Positions 10,427 through 52,157 of a stretch of DNA of 64,000 bases are shown here, in pieces. The translations under genes were made by a program, and so were the position numbers. The notes under the pieces were generated by a model. The model was not told where the DNA came from. It saw only the letters and a program-made list of their open reading frames with translations, and did no database searches. Numbering within the stretch: the stretch's first letter is position 1; each line of letters begins with the position of its first letter. The DNA comes from Escherichia coli (GTDB taxonomy: Bacteria > Pseudomonadota > Gammaproteobacteria > Enterobacterales > Enterobacteriaceae): assembly GCF_046105845.1 (NCBI RefSeq), contig NZ_CP151004.1, one strand, 5' to 3'.

Positions 10427-11287
10427 TTAAGATGCCTTTCTAATCAACCGATGCCCCTCATTCATCATCAGGATTTTGCTATACACATCTTCCTCGACGG
10501 CGTTTTTTGCTGATGCCATCACTCGTGCCAGATTCGCCTCGTTGTGATTATTCACATACGCTTTGCCGACGGCGGTGATAAACGCTTTGCGCAGATCGCT
10601 GGCGATATTTACTTTAGCGACGTGATAATTAACAAAGCTGCGCAATATCTCCGGGGCGATACCGGAGCCGCCGTGAATAACCAACGGCACCGGACAGACT
10701 TCGGCAATGCGCTTCAGCAAGGGGATATCGATCCGCGGTATATCGTCCAGACCATGAACGTTACCAATAGAAACTGCCAGCATGTCGCAACCGGTGCGCT
10801 CGACAAAGGTCTTCACCTTTTCCGGTTCCGTTTTGCAATCGGCTTCGCTGACGTGATCATCTTCTTTGCCGAGAATCGCCCCCAGCTCCGCTTCAACCGG
10901 TACGCCATAGGATTTACAGAAATCGACAGCTTCCTGGGTGAAAGCGATATTCTCTTCAAAAGAGAATGCGGCACCGTCAATCATGACCGAGGTAAAGCCC
11001 GCGCGCACCGCCTGTTTAACATCCTCCTGAGTTTTCCCGTGATCCAGATGAAGACTGACCGGAACATCCATTTTATCGGCGTGACGTTTCACGATTTCAT
11101 AAATGTAATCGTATCCCGAGAGTTGTGCATTGGTGGGCGCAATCTGAATGAAGTTGGGTAATCCTGAACGCTCAATGGCGTTTAAAATTGAAATCGTCGT
11201 CTCCAGATTGGTGGTATTAAACGCGCCCGCTAATACCCGTTTTTCCTGAATGCGGTCGAGCAGTATCCGTCCATTAACTAATGGCAT
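10427..11287 (-). CDS. Class II ketose-bisphosphate aldolase (FbaA/GatY/KbaY family)
   Basis: 286-aa ORF with LLDRIQEKRVLAGAFN, LHLDHG and VIHGGSG motifs typical of class II zinc aldolases; GAGG SD upstream. Confidence 0.8.
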   Translation of the reverse strand: MPLVNGRILLDRIQEKRVLAGAFNTTNLETTISILNAIERSGLPNFIQIAPTNAQLSGYDYIYEIVKRHADKMDVPVSLHLDHGKTQEDVKQAVRAGFTSVMIDGAAFSFEENIAFTQEAVDFCKSYGVPVEAELGAILGKEDDHVSEADCKTEPEKVKTFVERTGCDMLAVSIGNVHGLDDIPRIDIPLLKRIAEVCPVPLVIHGGSGIAPEILRSFVNYHVAKVNIASDLRKAFITAVGKAYVNNHNEANLARVMASAKNAVEEDVYSKILMMNEGHRLIRKAS

Positions 11288-11317
11288 TTGAAAACCTCAT
11301 CTTTTAATATCAGTTAA

Positions 11318-11587
11318 TTATTCAGCTTCACCGAAGCGGTCACGAAATAAGGCGGTGAGAGTTTGTATTGCCTCATTTTCATCATCGCCTTCGCAGCGTA
11401 TTTCCACCGTTTTACCGCCTTTTATTCCGGCGCGCATAATATTCATCATGCTGGTGGCATTAATATCATTACCCTCATAATGCAGCGTCACTTTACAGCT
11501 AAACTTTTTGGCGGCTTTTACCAGACAAGCCGCCGGACGTGCATGCAGGCCAGTACTGTTTCTGACCTCCACGGTTTTACTCAACAT
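11318..11587 (-). CDS. HPr-family phosphocarrier protein (operon-encoded HPr paralog)
   Basis: 89-aa ORF with GLHARPA (His15) and a Ser at position 46; GGAGG SD upstream; overlaps the 3' end of the kinase gene by 11 bp. Confidence 0.75.
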   Translation of the reverse strand: MLSKTVEVRNSTGLHARPAACLVKAAKKFSCKVTLHYEGNDINATSMMNIMRAGIKGGKTVEIRCEGDDENEAIQTLTALFRDRFGEAE

Positions 11588-13085
11588 AGTGCTCCTCCCG
11601 ATGGTGTAATGGCATCACGCCTTCTTGCTGTAATTTCAACTGATACCAGCTTTTCCATTTGTGCTGATAACGCTGTAATTGATGGTATCTCGCCCGATTC
11701 GGTAACAAACGTTGGGCTATGGTAACTTGCGGCGGTGGAATATCCGGTGCGGCAGTTAATAATGCTCCGACAGAAACCGCCTCGTTAAATGCAATTGCCT
11801 CAACCGGACGCTGTAAAATATCCGCCTTTAATTGCAGCCAAAGGGGATTATGGGTTGCCGGGCCGATTACTTTTAACGCGCTGGTGCCAGGCACATTAAA
11901 ACAGGCGAAGCAGTTGGCAAATTCCATGGTTAATCCCAGTGAGACGCTGGCAATTAACATGTCAATATTTAACGTATCGCTAAGCCCATAAAATAATCCA
12001 CGGGTATGGCGATTTTTATAGGGCGAACCCGAACCGCGAAGATGTGGAATAAAGAGGGGAATGTCATCGAGCGACCAGTTCCCCGCCAGGTAATCCGCAT
12101 GTCCGCGAGTAAGTGATGCGGCGATCTCCTCATCGGTTAGCCGGAACGTGTTACGCAGCCACTCCAGAGCGAAACCGCCCACGGGCAGCGACGCAAACAG
12201 GGTGAACTGGTTTGCAAGCGAATAACAGCCGTTTGCCAGCTTGTCACGTTTGGCCTGTTCATCCAGCGTCGGTTGTGTATCCAGTTGCAGAATGCCTTCT
12301 GTGGTCCCCGTCGAGTTAAGGATATCGCCCGGCATCATCTGCAACGCCCGTGCACCCACCATATGGTCATGTCCGGCCAGCGTCACGCTGACCGGTTGCG
12401 AGAACCCAAGCGTTTTGCAGAGCGACTCGCTGACCCATCCGGCGTGTTCGCCTGGCTGCACCAATGGCGCAAATGCTGAACAGGGAACGTGTAACAACGC
12501 CGCCGCTTTCGCTGACCATTCGCCTTTGCGCACGTCCAGACACAGCGTGCGGCTGGCTAAGGTGATATCCGTGCGCTGTTCGCCGGTCAGCCGCCAGAGC
12601 AGTACTTCCGGCGCATGTAGCCAACGCAGGCCGCGGCGATTACGCAGTGGGTAATGTTCCAGCAACCAACGCATTTTGAAGGCAGAGTAATTGCTGTGCA
12701 GCGGTAACCCGCAAATGTCATAAAGTGCCGCACTGTCTGCCTCGCTAAGTGTAGCCAGATACTCTTCACCGCGACGGTCATACCAGGCCAGCATTGGCGT
12801 CAGGATCTCGCCATGCTCGTCAAGGAACACGCCTGACTCGCCAAAACTGGCAATGCTTATCCGCCTGACTGGCAGCGGCGAAGCGGCGTTCAGTTGCGCT
12901 ATCGCCTGGCGGACCTCCTGCCAGAGGGCGTCGATATCGAAATCGACATCGCCCTGTGGGGAGATCTGTTTTGCCGTCACGAATTTATGCGCGCCCAACG
13001 TCGTTGCGTCCAGGCAGGAAAAGCAGGTGACTTTGCAATTGGTGGTGCCAATATCGATAACGATAGCTGCGCTGTTATCAGGCAT
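11577..13085 (-). CDS. FGGY-family carbohydrate kinase
   Basis: 502-aa ORF with N-terminal AIVIDIGTTNCKV (FGGY phosphate-1 motif) and two-domain actin-like fold size; overlaps the EIIC stop by 8 bp. Confidence 0.8.
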   Translation of the reverse strand: MPDNSAAIVIDIGTTNCKVTCFSCLDATTLGAHKFVTAKQISPQGDVDFDIDALWQEVRQAIAQLNAASPLPVRRISIASFGESGVFLDEHGEILTPMLAWYDRRGEEYLATLSEADSAALYDICGLPLHSNYSAFKMRWLLEHYPLRNRRGLRWLHAPEVLLWRLTGEQRTDITLASRTLCLDVRKGEWSAKAAALLHVPCSAFAPLVQPGEHAGWVSESLCKTLGFSQPVSVTLAGHDHMVGARALQMMPGDILNSTGTTEGILQLDTQPTLDEQAKRDKLANGCYSLANQFTLFASLPVGGFALEWLRNTFRLTDEEIAASLTRGHADYLAGNWSLDDIPLFIPHLRGSGSPYKNRHTRGLFYGLSDTLNIDMLIASVSLGLTMEFANCFACFNVPGTSALKVIGPATHNPLWLQLKADILQRPVEAIAFNEAVSVGALLTAAPDIPPPQVTIAQRLLPNRARYHQLQRYQHKWKSWYQLKLQQEGVMPLHHREEHYVE

Positions 13086-14436
13086 AAACCGTGCTCCGCG
13101 TCATTCGGAAAATACCATACAGTACCAGGGCGATAACCGGCACCAGACCAATGGCGATGAGATTGCCGTTGAAGATTTCCAGCAGCCAGAAGCGGAACGG
13201 GTTACCGCCATCAAGGAAACTGGAGACCTGGCCGCTGGAGCCTTCGGCAAATTTGAAATTAACGTCTTTCGCCATTCCGGTAATAAACGGCGCGATTTTA
13301 GTCGCAATCCACAGATCGGCAATAATCACCGGGATCGCCGCCAGAACGGTGCGGAAAATGTTGCCACGGCTGGCTAAAGCAATCATCGACGCCATTACCG
13401 CCAGGTTGGCAAGGTCGCCAAGCGGCAGGACTTCATTACCCGGAAGGACAAACGCGATAAAGACCGAGATTGGCGTCAGCAGCAGGGCGGTGGAGATAAT
13501 CGCCGGGTTACCTACGGCAACGGCGATATCCAGGCCGATATAGAGATCGTCACGGTCAGGGTATTTGGCATTGAGATACTTTTTAATGGCTTCAGACAGC
13601 GGTAATAAACCTTCCATCAGGATGCGTACCATGCGTGGCAGGATGAACATCACACCGCCAATGCTGATGCCAAGCAGCAAGACTTTTTTGAAATCGTATC
13701 CGGCAATTACGCCGAGCAGAATGCCCAGAATAGTACCAACCATCATCGGTTCGCCGAATATGCCAAACTTTTTCTGTACGGTTTCCGGATCGATATGAAT
13801 ACGATTGAGGCCGGGGATATGGTCGATGATTTTGTCGACCAGCAGACCGACCGGAAAGAACACCACCGAAGAGAGCGTCGGCAATGAGATCCCTTCCAGG
13901 CCAAAGTATTTTTGTACCAGTGGCGCAGACCAGTCGGCGAGTTTAAGTACTACCACCGCAGCAATCGCCGCCGCCAGTAAACCAAAAAACAGGCTGCCGG
14001 TGCTGTAATAAACCAGCGTACCAGCAAGGGCAAAATGCCAGTAGTTCCACATATCTACATCAACGGTGCGGGTTTTATTTAACGCCAGCATCGCCACGTT
14101 AATCAGAATAGTCAGGGGAATAACAAACGGGGCAATTGGCGAACCCCATGTAATAGCGGAAAGCGGCGGCCAGCCTAAATCCACCACCGGTAAATTAATT
14201 CCGGTGCGTTCAACCATCGCCTGGGCCGCTGGCCCGACATTGCTGGTAAGAATATCGAAAATGGCATAAATACCGACAAAACCAATGCCGACCGTTAATG
14301 ACGAACGTAAGGCTTTAGCGGGTTTTACTTTAAAACAGAGAGCAAGAATAAATAACACCAACGGCAACATTACCGTGGGACCAAATCCCAATATATATTG
14401 CACTATATTATAGAGGGTATGCGCGATATCGTTCAT
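13078..14436 (-). CDS. PTS galactitol-family EIIC permease
   Basis: Track ORF 13078..14466 (GTG); start refined to ATG 14436 with AAGAGG SD; multi-TM protein colinear with GatC (LGPTVMLP, GIGFVGI, GEP motifs). Confidence 0.85.
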   Translation of the reverse strand: MNDIAHTLYNIVQYILGFGPTVMLPLVLFILALCFKVKPAKALRSSLTVGIGFVGIYAIFDILTSNVGPAAQAMVERTGINLPVVDLGWPPLSAITWGSPIAPFVIPLTILINVAMLALNKTRTVDVDMWNYWHFALAGTLVYYSTGSLFFGLLAAAIAAVVVLKLADWSAPLVQKYFGLEGISLPTLSSVVFFPVGLLVDKIIDHIPGLNRIHIDPETVQKKFGIFGEPMMVGTILGILLGVIAGYDFKKVLLLGISIGGVMFILPRMVRILMEGLLPLSEAIKKYLNAKYPDRDDLYIGLDIAVAVGNPAIISTALLLTPISVFIAFVLPGNEVLPLGDLANLAVMASMIALASRGNIFRTVLAAIPVIIADLWIATKIAPFITGMAKDVNFKFAEGSSGQVSSFLDGGNPFRFWLLEIFNGNLIAIGLVPVIALVLYGIFRMTRSTVYA

Positions 14437-14450
14437 AATAAACCTCTTTT

Positions 14451-14483
14451 TCAGGCGAGAGCGCACCTCGCGTTAGCGCCTGA
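14451..14483 (-). other. Intra-operon stem-loop between PTS EIIB and EIIC genes
   Basis: TCAGGCG...CGCCTGA 7-bp stem enclosing a GC-rich sub-hairpin, in the 76-bp EIIB-EIIC spacer. Confidence 0.35.
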
Positions 14484-14512
14484 TGGAGTGGGTTGAAATT
14501 AATTATTATTAA

Positions 14513-14794
14513 TTACTTTTTAAGGATCGAAACAATTTGCGCCAGTACTTTCTCTTCGCCAATACCGGTAATAATCGGCAAGCCGTTAACCACCGGGACG
14601 TCGAGTTCATAAGGCACTTTAGTCGTTGAGACTACCAGTGCTACGCCATCAGTATTTCCAGGTAAAGAGGCAACGTTGGTTTGGGAATAATTGACGTTAA
14701 GACCGTGCTCTTTACAATATTCCATGACTTTTTCTGTTACCGCCGTGGATGTGGCAATACCCGTGGCGCAGACAAATAAAATGGTTTGACTCAT
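14513..14794 (-). CDS. PTS galactitol-family EIIB component
   Basis: 93-aa ORF with ILFVCATGIATS (phosphoryl-Cys loop) resembling GatB. Confidence 0.8.
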   Translation of the reverse strand: MSQTILFVCATGIATSTAVTEKVMEYCKEHGLNVNYSQTNVASLPGNTDGVALVVSTTKVPYELDVPVVNGLPIITGIGEEKVLAQIVSILKK

Positions 14795-15264
14795 ATTTCA
14801 CCTCGTTCTTTCATTTTGTTTAAGATTACTGTGTGTATTTCTGTTGTTTCCATCGTAAGCAGGGCGCGCATAAAGGGCGTATCCTGAATCATCTCCATAA
14901 TCCAGCCCAGGGCATTTAATTGTTTATTACTTTCGCTTAAGGCGAGCAAAAAAATCACCCTGACAGGTACGGGGTCAGGATCGCCGCCCATATCGGCAAA
15001 CTCTACCGGTTCCGGCAGGATGCCGACGGCAATTGCATTGTGCCTGACATGTTTATGGTCCGTGTGCGGAATGGCGACACACGGTGGTTCGGTAGGCAGC
15101 CCCGTTGGGTACGTCGCCTCACGTTTCAGTACGTGATCGGCAAAATCAGGGACCACCAGCTCGGCGGCAACCAACGGTTGCGCTAACTGACGGATGATCT
15201 GTTCAACGCTTAACCCTGCCGGAAGTCGTTGAATATAATTTTCCTGAAACTGTATGCCTTGCAT
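14791..15264 (-). CDS. PTS EIIA component (mannitol/fructose/galactitol type fold)
   Basis: 157-aa ORF with CVAIPHTDHKH active-site His region resembling GatA; 4-bp overlap with the EIIB start. Confidence 0.8.
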   Translation of the reverse strand: MQGIQFQENYIQRLPAGLSVEQIIRQLAQPLVAAELVVPDFADHVLKREATYPTGLPTEPPCVAIPHTDHKHVRHNAIAVGILPEPVEFADMGGDPDPVPVRVIFLLALSESNKQLNALGWIMEMIQDTPFMRALLTMETTEIHTVILNKMKERGEI

Positions 15265-15288
15265 TTTATTCCTCTTAAAAAAGTGTAC

Positions 15289-16035
15289 TTAACTCACTTC
15301 CCGCCGTTGCAGCACGGTGCCCAGATAATATTTATTTCCTTTTAACCAGACGTTGCCAAACTCAACGGGTAACTCTCGGGAGAAAAAGACTAACTGCTCC
15401 AGATGCAAAACGGGTGCATCTTCACTGATATCTAAAAAATGACCGCGTTCATTACCAATTAATCGCGCGGCATAGCGACTTTCAGAGTAACGAATTTTTC
15501 TTTGCGACAAACTTTCTATTGTTGGAAATAAATTGTGTTGATTAAAATCGATTTCCACGATGCCGGGACATAGCTCAATATTGATACGGTTCTCTATCAG
15601 CATCGCTTTTTCATCACCAATTGAACGTAACCGCTCAAGGTAAAGAATATCCTGACCGGGCGTTATTCTTAATTTCTCTGCCACATAACGATTAGCCGGT
15701 TCAATCCGTGACGTAATAACTTCAGTGGTAAAGTGTATTTTCTGGCTTTCCAGCGATTCCGCGAATGACAATAATCCTTCACCTAACGGATATGCCACGT
15801 TCTCTTTTTTGACAAATGTTCCCTTCCCCTGGACCTGAATCAACACGCCTTCTTTTACCAGTTGGGCGACCGCTTTTTTAACGGTTCCCCGACTCACTTC
15901 CAGCATATCCATAATCTGGTATTCCGAAGGAATGCGATCGTCTTCCACCAGATCCCCGGTATAAATACTTTCTCTTATCCACTCCACCACTTGTTGATAG
16001 AGCGGTATTTGTGACGACTTACTTAATGATTTCAT
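15289..16035 (-). CDS. GntR/HutC-family transcriptional regulator (HTH + UTRA effector domain)
   Basis: Track ORF 15289..16044 (GTG); start refined to ATG 16035 (AGGTG upstream); N-terminal wHTH (IPSEYQIMDMLEVSRGTVKKAVAQLVKEGVL) and C-terminal UTRA-like domain. Confidence 0.8.
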   Translation of the reverse strand: MKSLSKSSQIPLYQQVVEWIRESIYTGDLVEDDRIPSEYQIMDMLEVSRGTVKKAVAQLVKEGVLIQVQGKGTFVKKENVAYPLGEGLLSFAESLESQKIHFTTEVITSRIEPANRYVAEKLRITPGQDILYLERLRSIGDEKAMLIENRINIELCPGIVEIDFNQHNLFPTIESLSQRKIRYSESRYAARLIGNERGHFLDISEDAPVLHLEQLVFFSRELPVEFGNVWLKGNKYYLGTVLQRREVS

Positions 16036-16058
16036 GGCGCGCACCTGAACATTTACAG

Positions 16059-16072
16059 TTGTCTATGGACAA
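16059..16072. promoter_or_regulatory. Palindrome TTGTC-TATG-GACAA upstream of the island GntR/HutC regulator gene; candidate operator
   Basis: Perfect 5-bp inverted arms 24 bp upstream of the regulator ATG, followed by a third TGGACAA half-site at 16076-16082. Confidence 0.4.
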
Positions 16073-16233
16073 TCATGGACAACTTCAAGCGTATAGTAGG
16101 TGAACGGGAGAAAAAGAGGATCGAAGCGTCTCACATTTTGAGGGACCAAATCGTGATCAAAAAAATGTGACGTGAGTCGATATTTGTCAGAAGTTTACTG
16201 CGCCGTAAGGAAATAACGGCGCGTTGGTAGGTG

Positions 16234-19037
<2,804 letters not shown>

Positions 19038-22254: not shown

Positions 22255-22308
22255 ATCAGGGCCAACGTTTAATGGAAAATGAAAGTGCGTATCGTATCAC
22301 TTGTCGCC

Positions 22309-23358
22309 TCATCCCGGTAACCGACTTTTCGGTCTGCCTGGCCCCAGTAAAATCGCCAGTTTGCTACCGCCTTTCGTAGTTTCCATCCAGATTTTACACA
22401 CGCTGGTTAATGGCACCGAAAGTAGCATCCCTACCGGGCCGAGCAGCCATCCCCAAATTAACAATGAAAGAAATACCACCATGGTGGACATCCCCAGGCG
22501 ATGGCCCATCATCCGTGGTTCTAAAATATTGCCGATGACCATATGGACCACTAAAAACAATGCGCCGACCAGAATACATTCGTAAATACCATTAAACAGC
22601 AGCACCTGAACCATTGGCGGTACGGCGGAAATTACCGCGCCGATATTGGGCACGTAGTTGAGCAAAAACGCCAGTACTGCCCACATCAGCGCAAACTGTA
22701 CGCCCATTAGCGCCAGCCCCAGCCAGACGATGACACCTGTCCATAAACTGAGTAGCGTCTTCAATGCAAGATAGTGCGAAACGCCTTTAAGTGCGCGGTG
22801 TAATCCTGCGATGTGAATCTGTGGGTTATTCAGCGCAAAACGCATTTTGTAAGGGACGTGGCGCACTTCAAACAGCATGAAAACTACGGTCATCACCAGC
22901 AAAAGCACGCTCGCCATTGCCCCGGAAAGCCCGGTCATTAGCGCCGTGGTGAAGGTAACCACTTTTTCCGAGTCCATCCGCTGCAGCATTCGCTCCGGCG
23001 ACATATGTAAATTAAGAAAAGGCAACATCTCCTGCAATTTAAAAAGTTTGCGCGTCAGCTCCTTATTAAACTTCGGCAGCATAGAGATAAATTCGTTAAA
23101 CGATGCCGCCAGTACGCCGACCAGCGCAGTTAGTGCGATCAGCATCACCACCACCACAATCGTAATGGCAACGGGGCGTTGTACTCCCCGACGAATAAAC
23201 CAGGTGACGAGCGGGTTGAGGACGATGGCAAAAAACAGCGCCAGTAACAGCTGCACAATGATATCTGCCGCTGCGTGAATGCCCGCGAGGATCACTACCA
23301 GCGAGGCCAGCTTGAGCAGAATGTGCATGCCCGTTTTATCGGGTTGAGGGGTTTCCAT
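22309..23358 (-). CDS. yhhT: AI-2E family transporter YhhT (putative permease)
   Basis: Track ORF 22309..23439; start refined to ATG 23358 (METPQPDKTGMHILLKL...); multi-TM protein. Confidence 0.88.
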   Translation of the reverse strand: METPQPDKTGMHILLKLASLVVILAGIHAAADIIVQLLLALFFAIVLNPLVTWFIRRGVQRPVAITIVVVVMLIALTALVGVLAASFNEFISMLPKFNKELTRKLFKLQEMLPFLNLHMSPERMLQRMDSEKVVTFTTALMTGLSGAMASVLLLVMTVVFMLFEVRHVPYKMRFALNNPQIHIAGLHRALKGVSHYLALKTLLSLWTGVIVWLGLALMGVQFALMWAVLAFLLNYVPNIGAVISAVPPMVQVLLFNGIYECILVGALFLVVHMVIGNILEPRMMGHRLGMSTMVVFLSLLIWGWLLGPVGMLLSVPLTSVCKIWMETTKGGSKLAILLGPGRPKSRLPG

Positions 23359-39762: not shown

Positions 39763-41036
39763 AACCGATGCATATTGCAATGGCGCTGCTCTCTGCCGCT
39801 ATGTTCTTTGTGCTGGCGGGCGTCTTTATGGGCGTGCAACTGGAGCTGGATGGCACCAAACTGGTGGTCGACACGGCTTCAGACATCCGTTGGCAGTGGG
39901 TGTTTATCGGCACGGCGGTGGTCTTTTTCTTCCAGCTTTTGCGACCGGCTTTCCAGAAAGGGCTAAAAAGCGTTTCCGGGCCGAAGTTTATTCTGCCCGC
40001 GATTGATGGCTCCACGGTGAAGCAGAAACTCTTCCTCGTGGCGCTGCTGGTGCTTGCGGTGGCGTGGCCGTTTATGGTCTCACGCGGAACGGTGGATATC
40101 GCCACCCTGACCATGATCTACATTATCCTCGGCCTCGGGCTGAACGTGGTGGTAGGGCTTTCCGGCCTGCTGGTGCTGGGGTACGGTGGCTTTTACGCCA
40201 TCGGCGCTTACACCTTTGCGCTGCTCAATCACTATTACGGTCTGGGGTTCTGGACCTGTCTGCCTATTGCCGGGTTAATGGCAGCGGCGGCGGGCTTCCT
40301 GCTCGGCTTCCCGGTGTTGCGTTTACGTGGCGACTATCTGGCGATCGTTACCCTCGGTTTCGGCGAAATTGTGCGCATATTGCTGCTCAATAACACTGAA
40401 ATCACCGGCGGCCCGAACGGAATCAGTCAGATCCCGAAACCGACGCTCTTCGGACTCGAGTTCAGCCGTACCGCCCGTGAAGGCGGCTGGGATACGTTCA
40501 GTAATTTCTTTGGCCTGAAATACGATCCCTCCGATCGTGTCATCTTCCTCTACCTGGTGGCGTTGCTGCTGGTGGTGCTAAGCCTGTTTGTCATTAACCG
40601 CCTGCTGCGGATGCCGCTGGGGCGTGCGTGGGAAGCGTTGCGTGAAGACGAGATCGCCTGCCGTTCGCTGGGTTTAAGCCCGCGTCGTATCAAGCTGACC
40701 GCTTTTACCATCAGTGCCGCGTTTGCCGGTTTTGCCGGAACGCTGTTTGCTGCGCGCCAGGGCTTTGTCAGCCCGGAATCCTTCACCTTTGCTGAATCGG
40801 CGTTTGTACTGGCGATAGTGGTGCTCGGCGGTATGGGATCGCAGTTTGCGGTGATTCTGGCGGCTGTTCTGCTGGTGGTGTCGCGCGAATTGATGCGTGA
40901 TTTCAACGAATACAGCATGTTAATGCTCGGTGGTTTGATGGTGCTGATGATGATCTGGCGTCCGCAGGGCTTGCTGCCCATGACGCGCCCGCAACTCAAG
41001 CTGAAAAACGGCGCAGCGAAAGGAGAGCAGGCATGA
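39759..41036 (+). CDS. livM: Branched-chain amino acid ABC permease LivM
   Basis: 425-aa multi-TM ORF; 4-bp overlaps with livH and livG. Confidence 0.95.
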
Positions 41037-50238: not shown

Positions 50239-50242
50239 TATC

Positions 50243-50273
50243 TTAAGCCCTCTCCCGATAGGCGAGGGCTTAA
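50243..50273. terminator. Bidirectional hairpin between convergent ggt and yhhY
   Basis: TTAAGCCCTC-N11-GAGGGCTTAA perfect 10-bp stem in the 60-bp intergenic gap. Confidence 0.6.
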
Positions 50274-50298
50274 ATGACAAACTTAGATTGCAAATTCT

Positions 50299-50787
50299 CT
50301 ATTTCACCCGCGCCATATAATACGCATCGACATATTCACCATTACGTAATGCGTACTTCTTGCCAGTCCCTTCAATCTCAAAGCCGAATTTTTTATAGAC
50401 CTTAATTGCTGGCGCGTTATCGACGAACACCGTTAGCTCAATACGATCTACCCGCAACCAGTTGTCGCACATTTCAATCATCTCTCGCATCAGGGCGCTG
50501 GCGACGCCGCGATTCTTCCAACGGGAGTCGACACAAATACCAAAATCGGCAACATGACTGCGGCGTGGGCGCTGTTGCACGTCAATGGTGAGGTGACCCA
50601 CGACGGTTCCATCAATACAGGCAACTAACTGTTTGATGCCGGGACGATCGGCGAGTCGCTCCTGCCACATATGATCGGAAGGATGAGGCACCTGTAGTGT
50701 GTTGCAATACACCTCCGGCTGGGCGTGAATCTGCCTGATGGCCTCGTAATCGCGCGTTTCAGCATGGCGTATCACTATCTCACTCAT
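50299..50787 (-). CDS. yhhY: GNAT-family N-acetyltransferase YhhY
   Basis: Track ORF 50299..50865; start refined to ATG 50787 (MSEIVIRHAETRDYEAI...). Confidence 0.88.
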   Translation of the reverse strand: MSEIVIRHAETRDYEAIRQIHAQPEVYCNTLQVPHPSDHMWQERLADRPGIKQLVACIDGTVVGHLTIDVQQRPRRSHVADFGICVDSRWKNRGVASALMREMIEMCDNWLRVDRIELTVFVDNAPAIKVYKKFGFEIEGTGKKYALRNGEYVDAYYMARVK

Positions 50788-50887
50788 TCCTTTGTCCTCT
50801 TTGGGGTAAATGTCCCTTTCAACATCATTGACTTTCCAATGCGAGTCAAATGCATTTTTTTGCAAAAAGTGTTGGACAAGTGCGAAT

Positions 50888-50906
50888 GAGAATGATTATT
50901 ATTGTC
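50888..50906 (+). promoter_or_regulatory. Fur box overlapping the ryhB promoter
   Basis: GAGAATGATTATTATTGTC immediately upstream of the RyhB 5' end resembles the Fur consensus GATAATGATAATCATTATC. Confidence 0.7.
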
Positions 50907-50908
50907 TC

Positions 50909-50998
50909 GCGATCAGGAAGACCCTCGCGGAGAACCTGAAAGCACGACATTGCTCACATTGCTTCCAGTATTACTTAGCCAGCCGGGTGCTGGCTTTT
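50909..50998 (+). ncRNA. ryhB: Fur-regulated iron-sparing small RNA RyhB
   Basis: GCGATCAGGAAGACCCTCGCGGAGAACCTGAAAGCACGACATTGCTCACATTGCTTCCAGTATTACTTAGCCAGCCGGGTGCTGGCTTTT matches RyhB; ends in a GC hairpin plus U-tract; Fur-box-like AT-rich sequence immediately upstream. Confidence 0.92.
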
Positions 50999-51119
50999 TT
51001 TTGATCTTTCGTTTTCAATTTATCCACGGGAAGTGCTTGTGTTCGTTATGCGCACTCCAGTAGGAACCACGTCCGCTTTGCGCTAAGGTGTAAATAATCA
51101 CCTTAAAAAGGACGAAATC

Positions 51120-52157
51120 ATGGTCATCAACTGCGCCTTTATTGGCTTCGGCAAAAGCACCACCCGTTACCATCTGCCGTATGTACTTAACCGCAAGGAT
51201 AGCTGGCATGTCGCGCATATTTTTCGCCGCCATGCGAAGCCGGAAGAACAGGCCCCCATTTACTCTCATATCCATTTCACCAGCGATCTCGACGAAGTAC
51301 TAAACGATCCCGATGTTAAGCTGGTTGTGGTCTGCACCCATGCAGACAGCCACTTCGAGTACGCGAAGCGCGCGCTGGAAGCCGGGAAAAATGTGCTGGT
51401 CGAAAAACCGTTCACCCCGACGCTTGCCCAGGCGAAGGAGCTGTTTGCGCTGGCGAAAAGCAAAGGACTGACCGTCACGCCGTATCAGAATCGTCGTTTT
51501 GACTCCTGCTTCCTGACAGCGAAAAAAGCGATTGAAAGTGGCAAGTTGGGAGAGATTGTCGAAGTGGAAAGCCATTTTGACTATTACCGCCCGGTGGCAG
51601 AAACCAAACCTGGGCTGCCGCAGGATGGCGCGTTTTATGGCCTTGGTGTGCATACGATGGACCAGATTATTTCTCTGTTCGGTCGCCCGGATCACGTCGC
51701 TTATGACATCCGCAGCCTGCGTAATAAAGCCAATCCTGACGACACCTTTGAAGCGCAGCTGTTTTATGGCGACCTGAAAGCCATCGTCAAAACCAGCCAT
51801 CTGGTGAAAATCGATTATCCGAAATTTATCGTTCACGGTAAGAAAGGTTCGTTTATTAAATACGGTATCGACCAGCAGGAAACCAGTCTCAAGGCTAATA
51901 TTATGCCGGGCGAACCGGGATTCGCAGCGGATGATTCGGTCGGTGTGCTGGAGTATGTCAATGACGAGGGTGTGACGGTCAGAGAAGAGATGAAGCCGGA
52001 GATGGGCGATTACGGGCGCGTTTATGATGCGTTGTATCAAACCATCACCAACGGTGCGCCAAATTACGTCAAGGAATCTGAAGTTCTTACCAATCTGGAA
52101 ATCCTTGAACGCGGATTTGAGCAAGCCTCTCCCTCCACAGTGACTCTCGCGAAGTAA
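51120..52157 (+). CDS. yhhX: Gfo/Idh/MocA-family NAD(P)-dependent oxidoreductase YhhX
   Basis: 345-aa ORF MVINCAFIGFGKSTTRYHLP (Rossmann N-terminus). Confidence 0.92.
   Translation: MVINCAFIGFGKSTTRYHLPYVLNRKDSWHVAHIFRRHAKPEEQAPIYSHIHFTSDLDEVLNDPDVKLVVVCTHADSHFEYAKRALEAGKNVLVEKPFTPTLAQAKELFALAKSKGLTVTPYQNRRFDSCFLTAKKAIESGKLGEIVEVESHFDYYRPVAETKPGLPQDGAFYGLGVHTMDQIISLFGRPDHVAYDIRSLRNKANPDDTFEAQLFYGDLKAIVKTSHLVKIDYPKFIVHGKKGSFIKYGIDQQETSLKANIMPGEPGFAADDSVGVLEYVNDEGVTVREEMKPEMGDYGRVYDALYQTITNGAPNYVKESEVLTNLEILERGFEQASPSTVTLAK

Follow-up and report, generated by a model that had tools for sequence, protein, structure and literature searches.

RyhB is an iron-sparing small RNA that represses about 50 genes, mostly those of iron proteins, by means of Hfq and RNase E, and that activates shiA and cirA (PMC4666370). 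Escherichia coli has been reported to encode a single RyhB (PMC4211561), which in K-12 MG1655 corresponds to the ncRNA gene ryhB (b4451; 3580922..3581016, minus strand), located between yhhX (b3440) and yhhY (b3441). Salmonella RfrA (RyhB-1) and Yersinia RyhB1 are orthologues found in the same genomic context, also repressed by Fur and with a near-identical core (PMC4211561), although they are 66–82% identical overall and the 5' region is divergent. Furthermore, Salmonella and Yersinia carry a second, distal paralogue (RfrB/IsrE and RyhB2, respectively), in contrast to the one copy found in this work. There are also functional analogues, i.e., Fur-repressed iron-sparing small RNAs, such as PrrF1 and PrrF2 of Pseudomonas (PMC4211561) or FsrA of Bacillus (Bacillus reference in PMC4666370), but these lack significant sequence homology to RyhB and fall outside the Rfam family RF00057.

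Here we have analyzed a stretch of E. coli DNA of 64,000 nucleotides (hereafter the window). We consider it practically certain that positions 50909..51002 of its plus strand encode RyhB, a Fur-repressed and Hfq-dependent small regulatory RNA. The features of the locus, in window coordinates, are the following:

50299..50787, minus strand: yhhY, GNAT N-acetyltransferase, with its ATG at 50787 (Pfam Acetyltransf_1, E 2.8e-19)
50810..51004, plus strand: spurious 64-aa ATG ORF, not a gene, spanning the promoter and the whole small RNA (ORF list)
50873..50878, plus strand: ryhB −35, TGGACA (promoter scan; same in K-12)
50884..50908, strand not assigned: predicted Fur-binding region, overlapping the −10 and reaching the transcription start (consensus match)
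50897..50902, plus strand: ryhB −10, TATTAT, 6 nt before the K-12-equivalent +1 (promoter scan)
50909..51002, plus strand: RyhB transcript (RF00057 and alignment to K-12 b4451)
50912..50940, plus strand: 5' stem UCAGG/CCUGA around a variable insert, with arms at ~50913–50917 and ~50935–50939 (RNAalifold)
50942..50968, plus strand: invariant target-pairing core GCACGACAUUGCUCACAUUGCUUCCAG, a conserved 27-mer at about nt 34–60 of the RNA
50977..51002, plus strand: Rho-independent terminator and, by analogy with K-12, Hfq-binding 3' module (terminator scan)
51120..52157, plus strand: yhhX, Gfo/Idh/MocA oxidoreductase, 345 aa (ORF list, Pfam)

When the whole window was scanned against all 4227 Rfam families at their gathering thresholds, RF00057 (RyhB) appeared as the sole match, located at 50938–51002 on the plus strand, with a score of 83.1 bits (the gathering threshold being 55), an E-value of 3.6e-14, and the complete model aligned (1–67 of 67). 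This E-value, together with the identity to K-12 (see below), rules out a chance match. The alignment to K-12 MG1655 and the mapping of its annotation set the transcription start (+1) at G50909, with the T tract running up to 51002, and the sequence from 50909 on reads GCGATCAGGAAGACCCTCGCGGAGAACCTGAAAGCACGACATTGCTCACATTGCTTCCAGTATTACTTAGCCAGCCGGGTGCTGGCTTTTTTTT. The 3' end has been placed inside this T tract (50995–51002), with the “90-nt” form ending at 50998. A previous sequence-only reading of the same DNA had named a RyhB small RNA with a Fur box, upstream of yhhX, at 50884–50998, and had suggested its alignment to the Rfam RyhB model. The identification was borne out by that alignment over the full model and by the K-12 counterpart, and the Fur box and the location upstream of yhhX, on the same strand, were found as described; the pairing core proved to be that of K-12 and the terminator intact. 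Only the span had to be amended, as it runs from the left edge of the Fur box over the first 90 nt of the RNA, the transcript proper being 50909..~51002.

The locus shares with K-12 the promoter, the Fur box, the 5' stem, the core, the terminator stem, and the neighbours yhhY and yhhX with their orientation. Over the whole stretch that begins upstream of the −35 and closes with the terminator stem, the pairwise alignment shows no base change with respect to MG1655 ryhB, and the single difference within the gene is the terminator tail, of eight T (T8) here versus nine (T9) in K-12; outside the gene there are a few substitutions in the flanking spacers. This identity in sequence and architecture is a direct result of the alignment, and nothing in the sequence contradicts the assignment to RyhB. 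Beyond yhhY, K-12 has additionally yhhZ, whereas in the window yhhY is followed directly by ggt (50240–50300), as in strain PCN033. We take the extra K-12 segment to be the yhhZ-yrhA-IS1-yrhB island. Of 5426 complete E. coli genomes, 5424 matched the 351 bp around ryhB, and a 138-bp segment comprising promoter and RNA had an identity of 99% or higher in 5413 of the 5424 that carry it. What we have located is an intact, ordinary, and long-known E. coli gene, a textbook regulator of iron homeostasis, and no new biology follows from finding it here.

The ryhB promoter (TGGACA-18-TATTAT, 50873–50902) matches the consensus at 10 of 12 positions and was the only sigma-70-like promoter given by a simple consensus scan of 50600–51300. 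Its −35 site is conserved as T..ACA (TGGACA, TAGACA, or TTTACA) in the 50 loci compared. The best 19-bp match to the Fur box is found at 50888–50906, overlapping the −10, with three mismatches to GATAATGATAATCATTATC; it is unique in the window, and shuffled sequence gave no match to the consensus in any of 100 shuffles. Both the Fur-box region and this 19-mer are base-for-base identical to MG1655, and gel-shift assays have been reported in which Fur bound the K-12 sequence, where the site scores 25.2 bits at position −15 (PMC2189734). As for other species, a Fur box (with five or fewer mismatches) was present in the 100 nt upstream of 116 of the 118 usable RyhB-core loci among the matches listed, versus none of 506 control windows coming from the same loci.

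The 27-nt core is present in one copy in the window and is identical to that of K-12. By an exact-pattern scan of a collection of species-representative genomes, this core, GCACGACATTGCTCACATTGCTTCCAG, was recovered at no fewer than 120 loci, belonging to Enterobacterales, Aeromonas, Photobacterium, Aliivibrio, Salinivibrio, and Zobellella. Nucleotides 38–46 of RyhB (50946–50954, GACAUUGCU) can pair over all 9 nt, without a mismatch, with positions −4 to +5 of K-12 sodB, including the start codon, a complementarity seen directly in the two sequences. The extended duplex with the Shine-Dalgarno region of sodB had an energy of −18 kcal/mol, a value that 4 out of 1000 shuffled cores also attained. 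These values were computed for the core against the translation-initiation region of K-12 sodB; with the entire RyhB and 100 nt of sodB, RNAduplex gave an unrealistic end-to-end duplex, and core-only pairing was used instead.

Two copies of the RyhB core, each with its own Fur box, were seen in many species, among them members of Yersinia, Photorhabdus, Serratia, Pantoea, and Pectobacterium. In these genera the two copies are at separate loci, only one of them being yhhY-linked; in Salinivibrio (loci L082 and L086) they are arranged in tandem, about 300 nt apart.

The RNAalifold consensus of 47 distinct homologues contains three helices, i.e., the 5' stem, a small hairpin within the core, and the terminator stem. 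In our reading of this consensus the core is single-stranded, with the small hairpin inside, and this hairpin is invariant in the set because the loci were selected by their exact match to the core. The 5' stem was paired in 91% of the cells across the 47 homologues, compared to 20–59% when the partner was slid, and presents compensatory changes (UA>CG, CG>UA, and AU>CG), while the terminator stem was paired in 98% of the cells and includes one compensatory change of AU>CG; taken across both stems, the sliding-partner control gave 20–65%. Both the conservation of the elements and their covariation are direct observations on these alignments. The minimum free energy of the whole RNA was no better than that of shuffled sequences (z −0.51), an uninformative outcome that is normal when the core of a trans-acting small RNA stays open.

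Based on published work on K-12, whose gene is identical, we infer that in this strain too ryhB is repressed by Fur, depends on Hfq, and brings about the decay of its targets. With sufficient iron, Fe2+-Fur would sit on the Fur box (about 50884–50908) and, as the box overlaps the −10 and the start site, its binding would block RNA polymerase. When iron becomes scarce Fur would leave, the sigma-70 promoter would fire from G50909, and transcription would end at the hairpin and U tail (50977–51002). Hfq would then bind the hairpin at the 3' end together with the U tail and the AU-rich sequence preceding them, and the core (50942–50968) would base-pair at the ribosome-binding regions of mRNAs whose products are non-essential iron proteins, such as those of sodB, sdhCDAB, acnB, ftnA, and bfr. 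This pairing is expected to block translation and to lead to RNase E-dependent decay of both RNAs, by which iron would be spared, a few targets (shiA and cirA) being presumably activated instead.

The order of the genes, with yhhY divergent from ryhB and yhhX co-oriented with it, is that of K-12. The YhhX protein, with a Pfam GFO_IDH_MocA domain and its C-terminal domain (E 3e-31 and 3e-47, respectively), is 100% identical to its K-12 counterpart, and YhhY is 99% identical. Upstream, divergent yhhY keeps an almost fixed distance to the RyhB core, of 151–181 nt in genera such as Escherichia, Yersinia, Serratia, Pantoea, and Rahnella and of 213 nt in Hafnia, while among the loci in the matches listed yhhX is downstream only in Enterobacteriaceae, with a ryhB-yhhX spacing that goes from 75 to 1465 nt. 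The most deeply conserved neighbour of ryhB across genera is the divergent yhhY and not yhhX. The yhhY-linked RyhB loci of other species behave in this respect like the context of Salmonella RfrA and Yersinia RyhB1, and the published contexts in Klebsiella (PMC3423075) and in Salmonella and Yersinia (PMC4211561) agree with the synteny found here.

When the yhhY-ryhB intergenic regions of 50 loci were aligned, a GTCAA block (50850–50854, which reads TTGAC in the minus strand) proved to be conserved some 20 nt before the ryhB −35. It is probably the −35 of a divergent yhhY promoter (TTGACT, 17 nt, GATGTT; 50826–50856, minus strand), and two promoters placed back to back would account for the constant distance between yhhY and ryhB in the different genera.

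The Fur box could serve mainly to control one of these neighbours, either yhhX, by read-through in a ryhB-yhhX operon, or the divergent yhhY, RyhB being then a part of the output. We regard this as rather unlikely, and it would be compatible with RyhB as the main product rather than a real alternative to it. The site was initially assigned to yhhX, by Vassinova and Kozyrev as they are cited in PMC2189734, and was recognised afterwards as the ryhB promoter (PMC2189734). Read-through of about 20% has been described at the ryhB terminator, and the co-transcription of ryhB and yhhX has been suspected, although it is unproven (PMC4509938). In the window, a simple scan of the 117-nt spacer between both genes (51003–51119) gave no sigma-70-consensus promoter, and a second, weak terminator-like hairpin is located at 51025–51041, features that are compatible with the suspected co-transcription. 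However, the widely variable distance to yhhX and the absence of this gene downstream of ryhB outside Enterobacteriaceae argue against yhhX as the main target. In the case of yhhY, its constant distance across genera would favour such a control, but the likely yhhY −35 (TTGAC, 50854–50850, minus strand) and the Fur box are separated by some 30 nt; the box sits upstream of the likely yhhY promoter and is thus not placed to occlude it.

With RyhB kept as the main product, ryhB and yhhX may still form an sRNA-mRNA read-through operon similar to sgrS-setA, in which the Fur-controlled promoter would drive YhhX and the T8/T9 length would tune termination and the production of Hfq-competent RyhB; we put this forward tentatively and consider it doubtful. 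If true, the expression of the YhhX oxidoreductase would respond to iron via the ryhB promoter, which would be of modest interest.

The terminator consists of a stem of seven pairs, five of them GC (50977–50983 with 50989–50995), a CGGGU loop, and the T8 tail (50995–51002), and its hairpin has an energy of −11.0 kcal/mol. The hairpin and the 3'-terminal polyU tail make up the Hfq-binding module, and the RNAs that result from read-through have lost their binding to Hfq (PMC4509938). The T8 allele, detected by an exact 48-mer over the tail, is a natural minority variant present in about 8% of the complete E. coli genomes (438 of 5416), a tail one base longer, the T9 of K-12, being found in 4976 of the 5416. 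A decayed or non-functional copy of ryhB, in whose favour one could cite the U tract one residue below that of K-12, is scarcely credible and has been rejected, as no other base between the −35 and the end of the terminator stem departs from K-12, T8 is shared by 438 complete E. coli genomes, tails of 7–8 T are found in many RyhB homologues of other genera, and a tail of eight U has been reported for functional SgrS (PMC4509938).

An ATG-initiated ORF of 64 codons runs on the plus strand across ryhB (50810..51004), but it is exceedingly improbable that it is a real protein-coding gene in which the RNA signals would be incidental. Its start is located 99 nt upstream of the ryhB transcription start, and since the ORF begins before the +1 of the only promoter-like site, the RyhB transcript cannot encode it. 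Its translation gave no Pfam match above the cut-off (best E 0.044, 14 bits), and it is annotated neither in K-12 nor by PGAP. The one extra T of K-12 moves the stop, so that the same frame reaches 95 aa, and in E. albertii and Citrobacter no start-to-stop ORF goes in frame through the RyhB core. The frame was followed in 122 related loci and is not conserved, as its length varies between 0 and over 100 codons and most other genera have no ORF in it, while the RNA, the Fur box, and the terminator are maintained in loci where it is absent or varies. An unconserved frame over conserved RNA elements indicates that the ORF is an artefact of six-frame translation, and the 64-aa protein has been rejected on the basis of its start, the lack of a Pfam family, and the unconserved frame.

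The sequence-only reading had likewise called this ORF spurious, and its remark that the RNA is easy to miss holds too, as the RefSeq E. coli records listed have no feature under the ryhB match, which has been left unannotated by the NCBI pipeline. The practical worth of the result is in annotation, given that a naive ORF caller would place a false 64-aa protein at ryhB.

Beyond this locus, the window comes from a lineage (possibly Shigella, a rare phylogroup, or a cryptic clade) that is not represented among the 5,426 complete RefSeq E. coli genomes, since none of them reaches 99% identity over the stretches compared: the best one had 98.5% over the 24 kb of core genes at 40000–64000 and 97.4% over positions 1–17000. 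The ryhB promoter and RNA are unchanged in spite of this. Strain PCN033 is 98.0–98.7% identical to the window over 47 kb, with differences in islands, and 100% identical over the 351-bp ryhB stretch. The window lacks a 15.4-kb island that PCN033 has between yhhT and acpT (about 22274–22313), which contains acyl-carrier, ketoacyl-synthase, MMPL-transporter, and glycosyltransferase genes, as well as its IS1397 insertion between ugpB and livF (about 42661). In the matching E. coli records, DUF4049/yhiJ-type genes lie somewhere under the first 17 kb. Finally, positions 1–4000 have a low GC content (35–37%, compared to about 52% elsewhere) and are probably a horizontally acquired segment.
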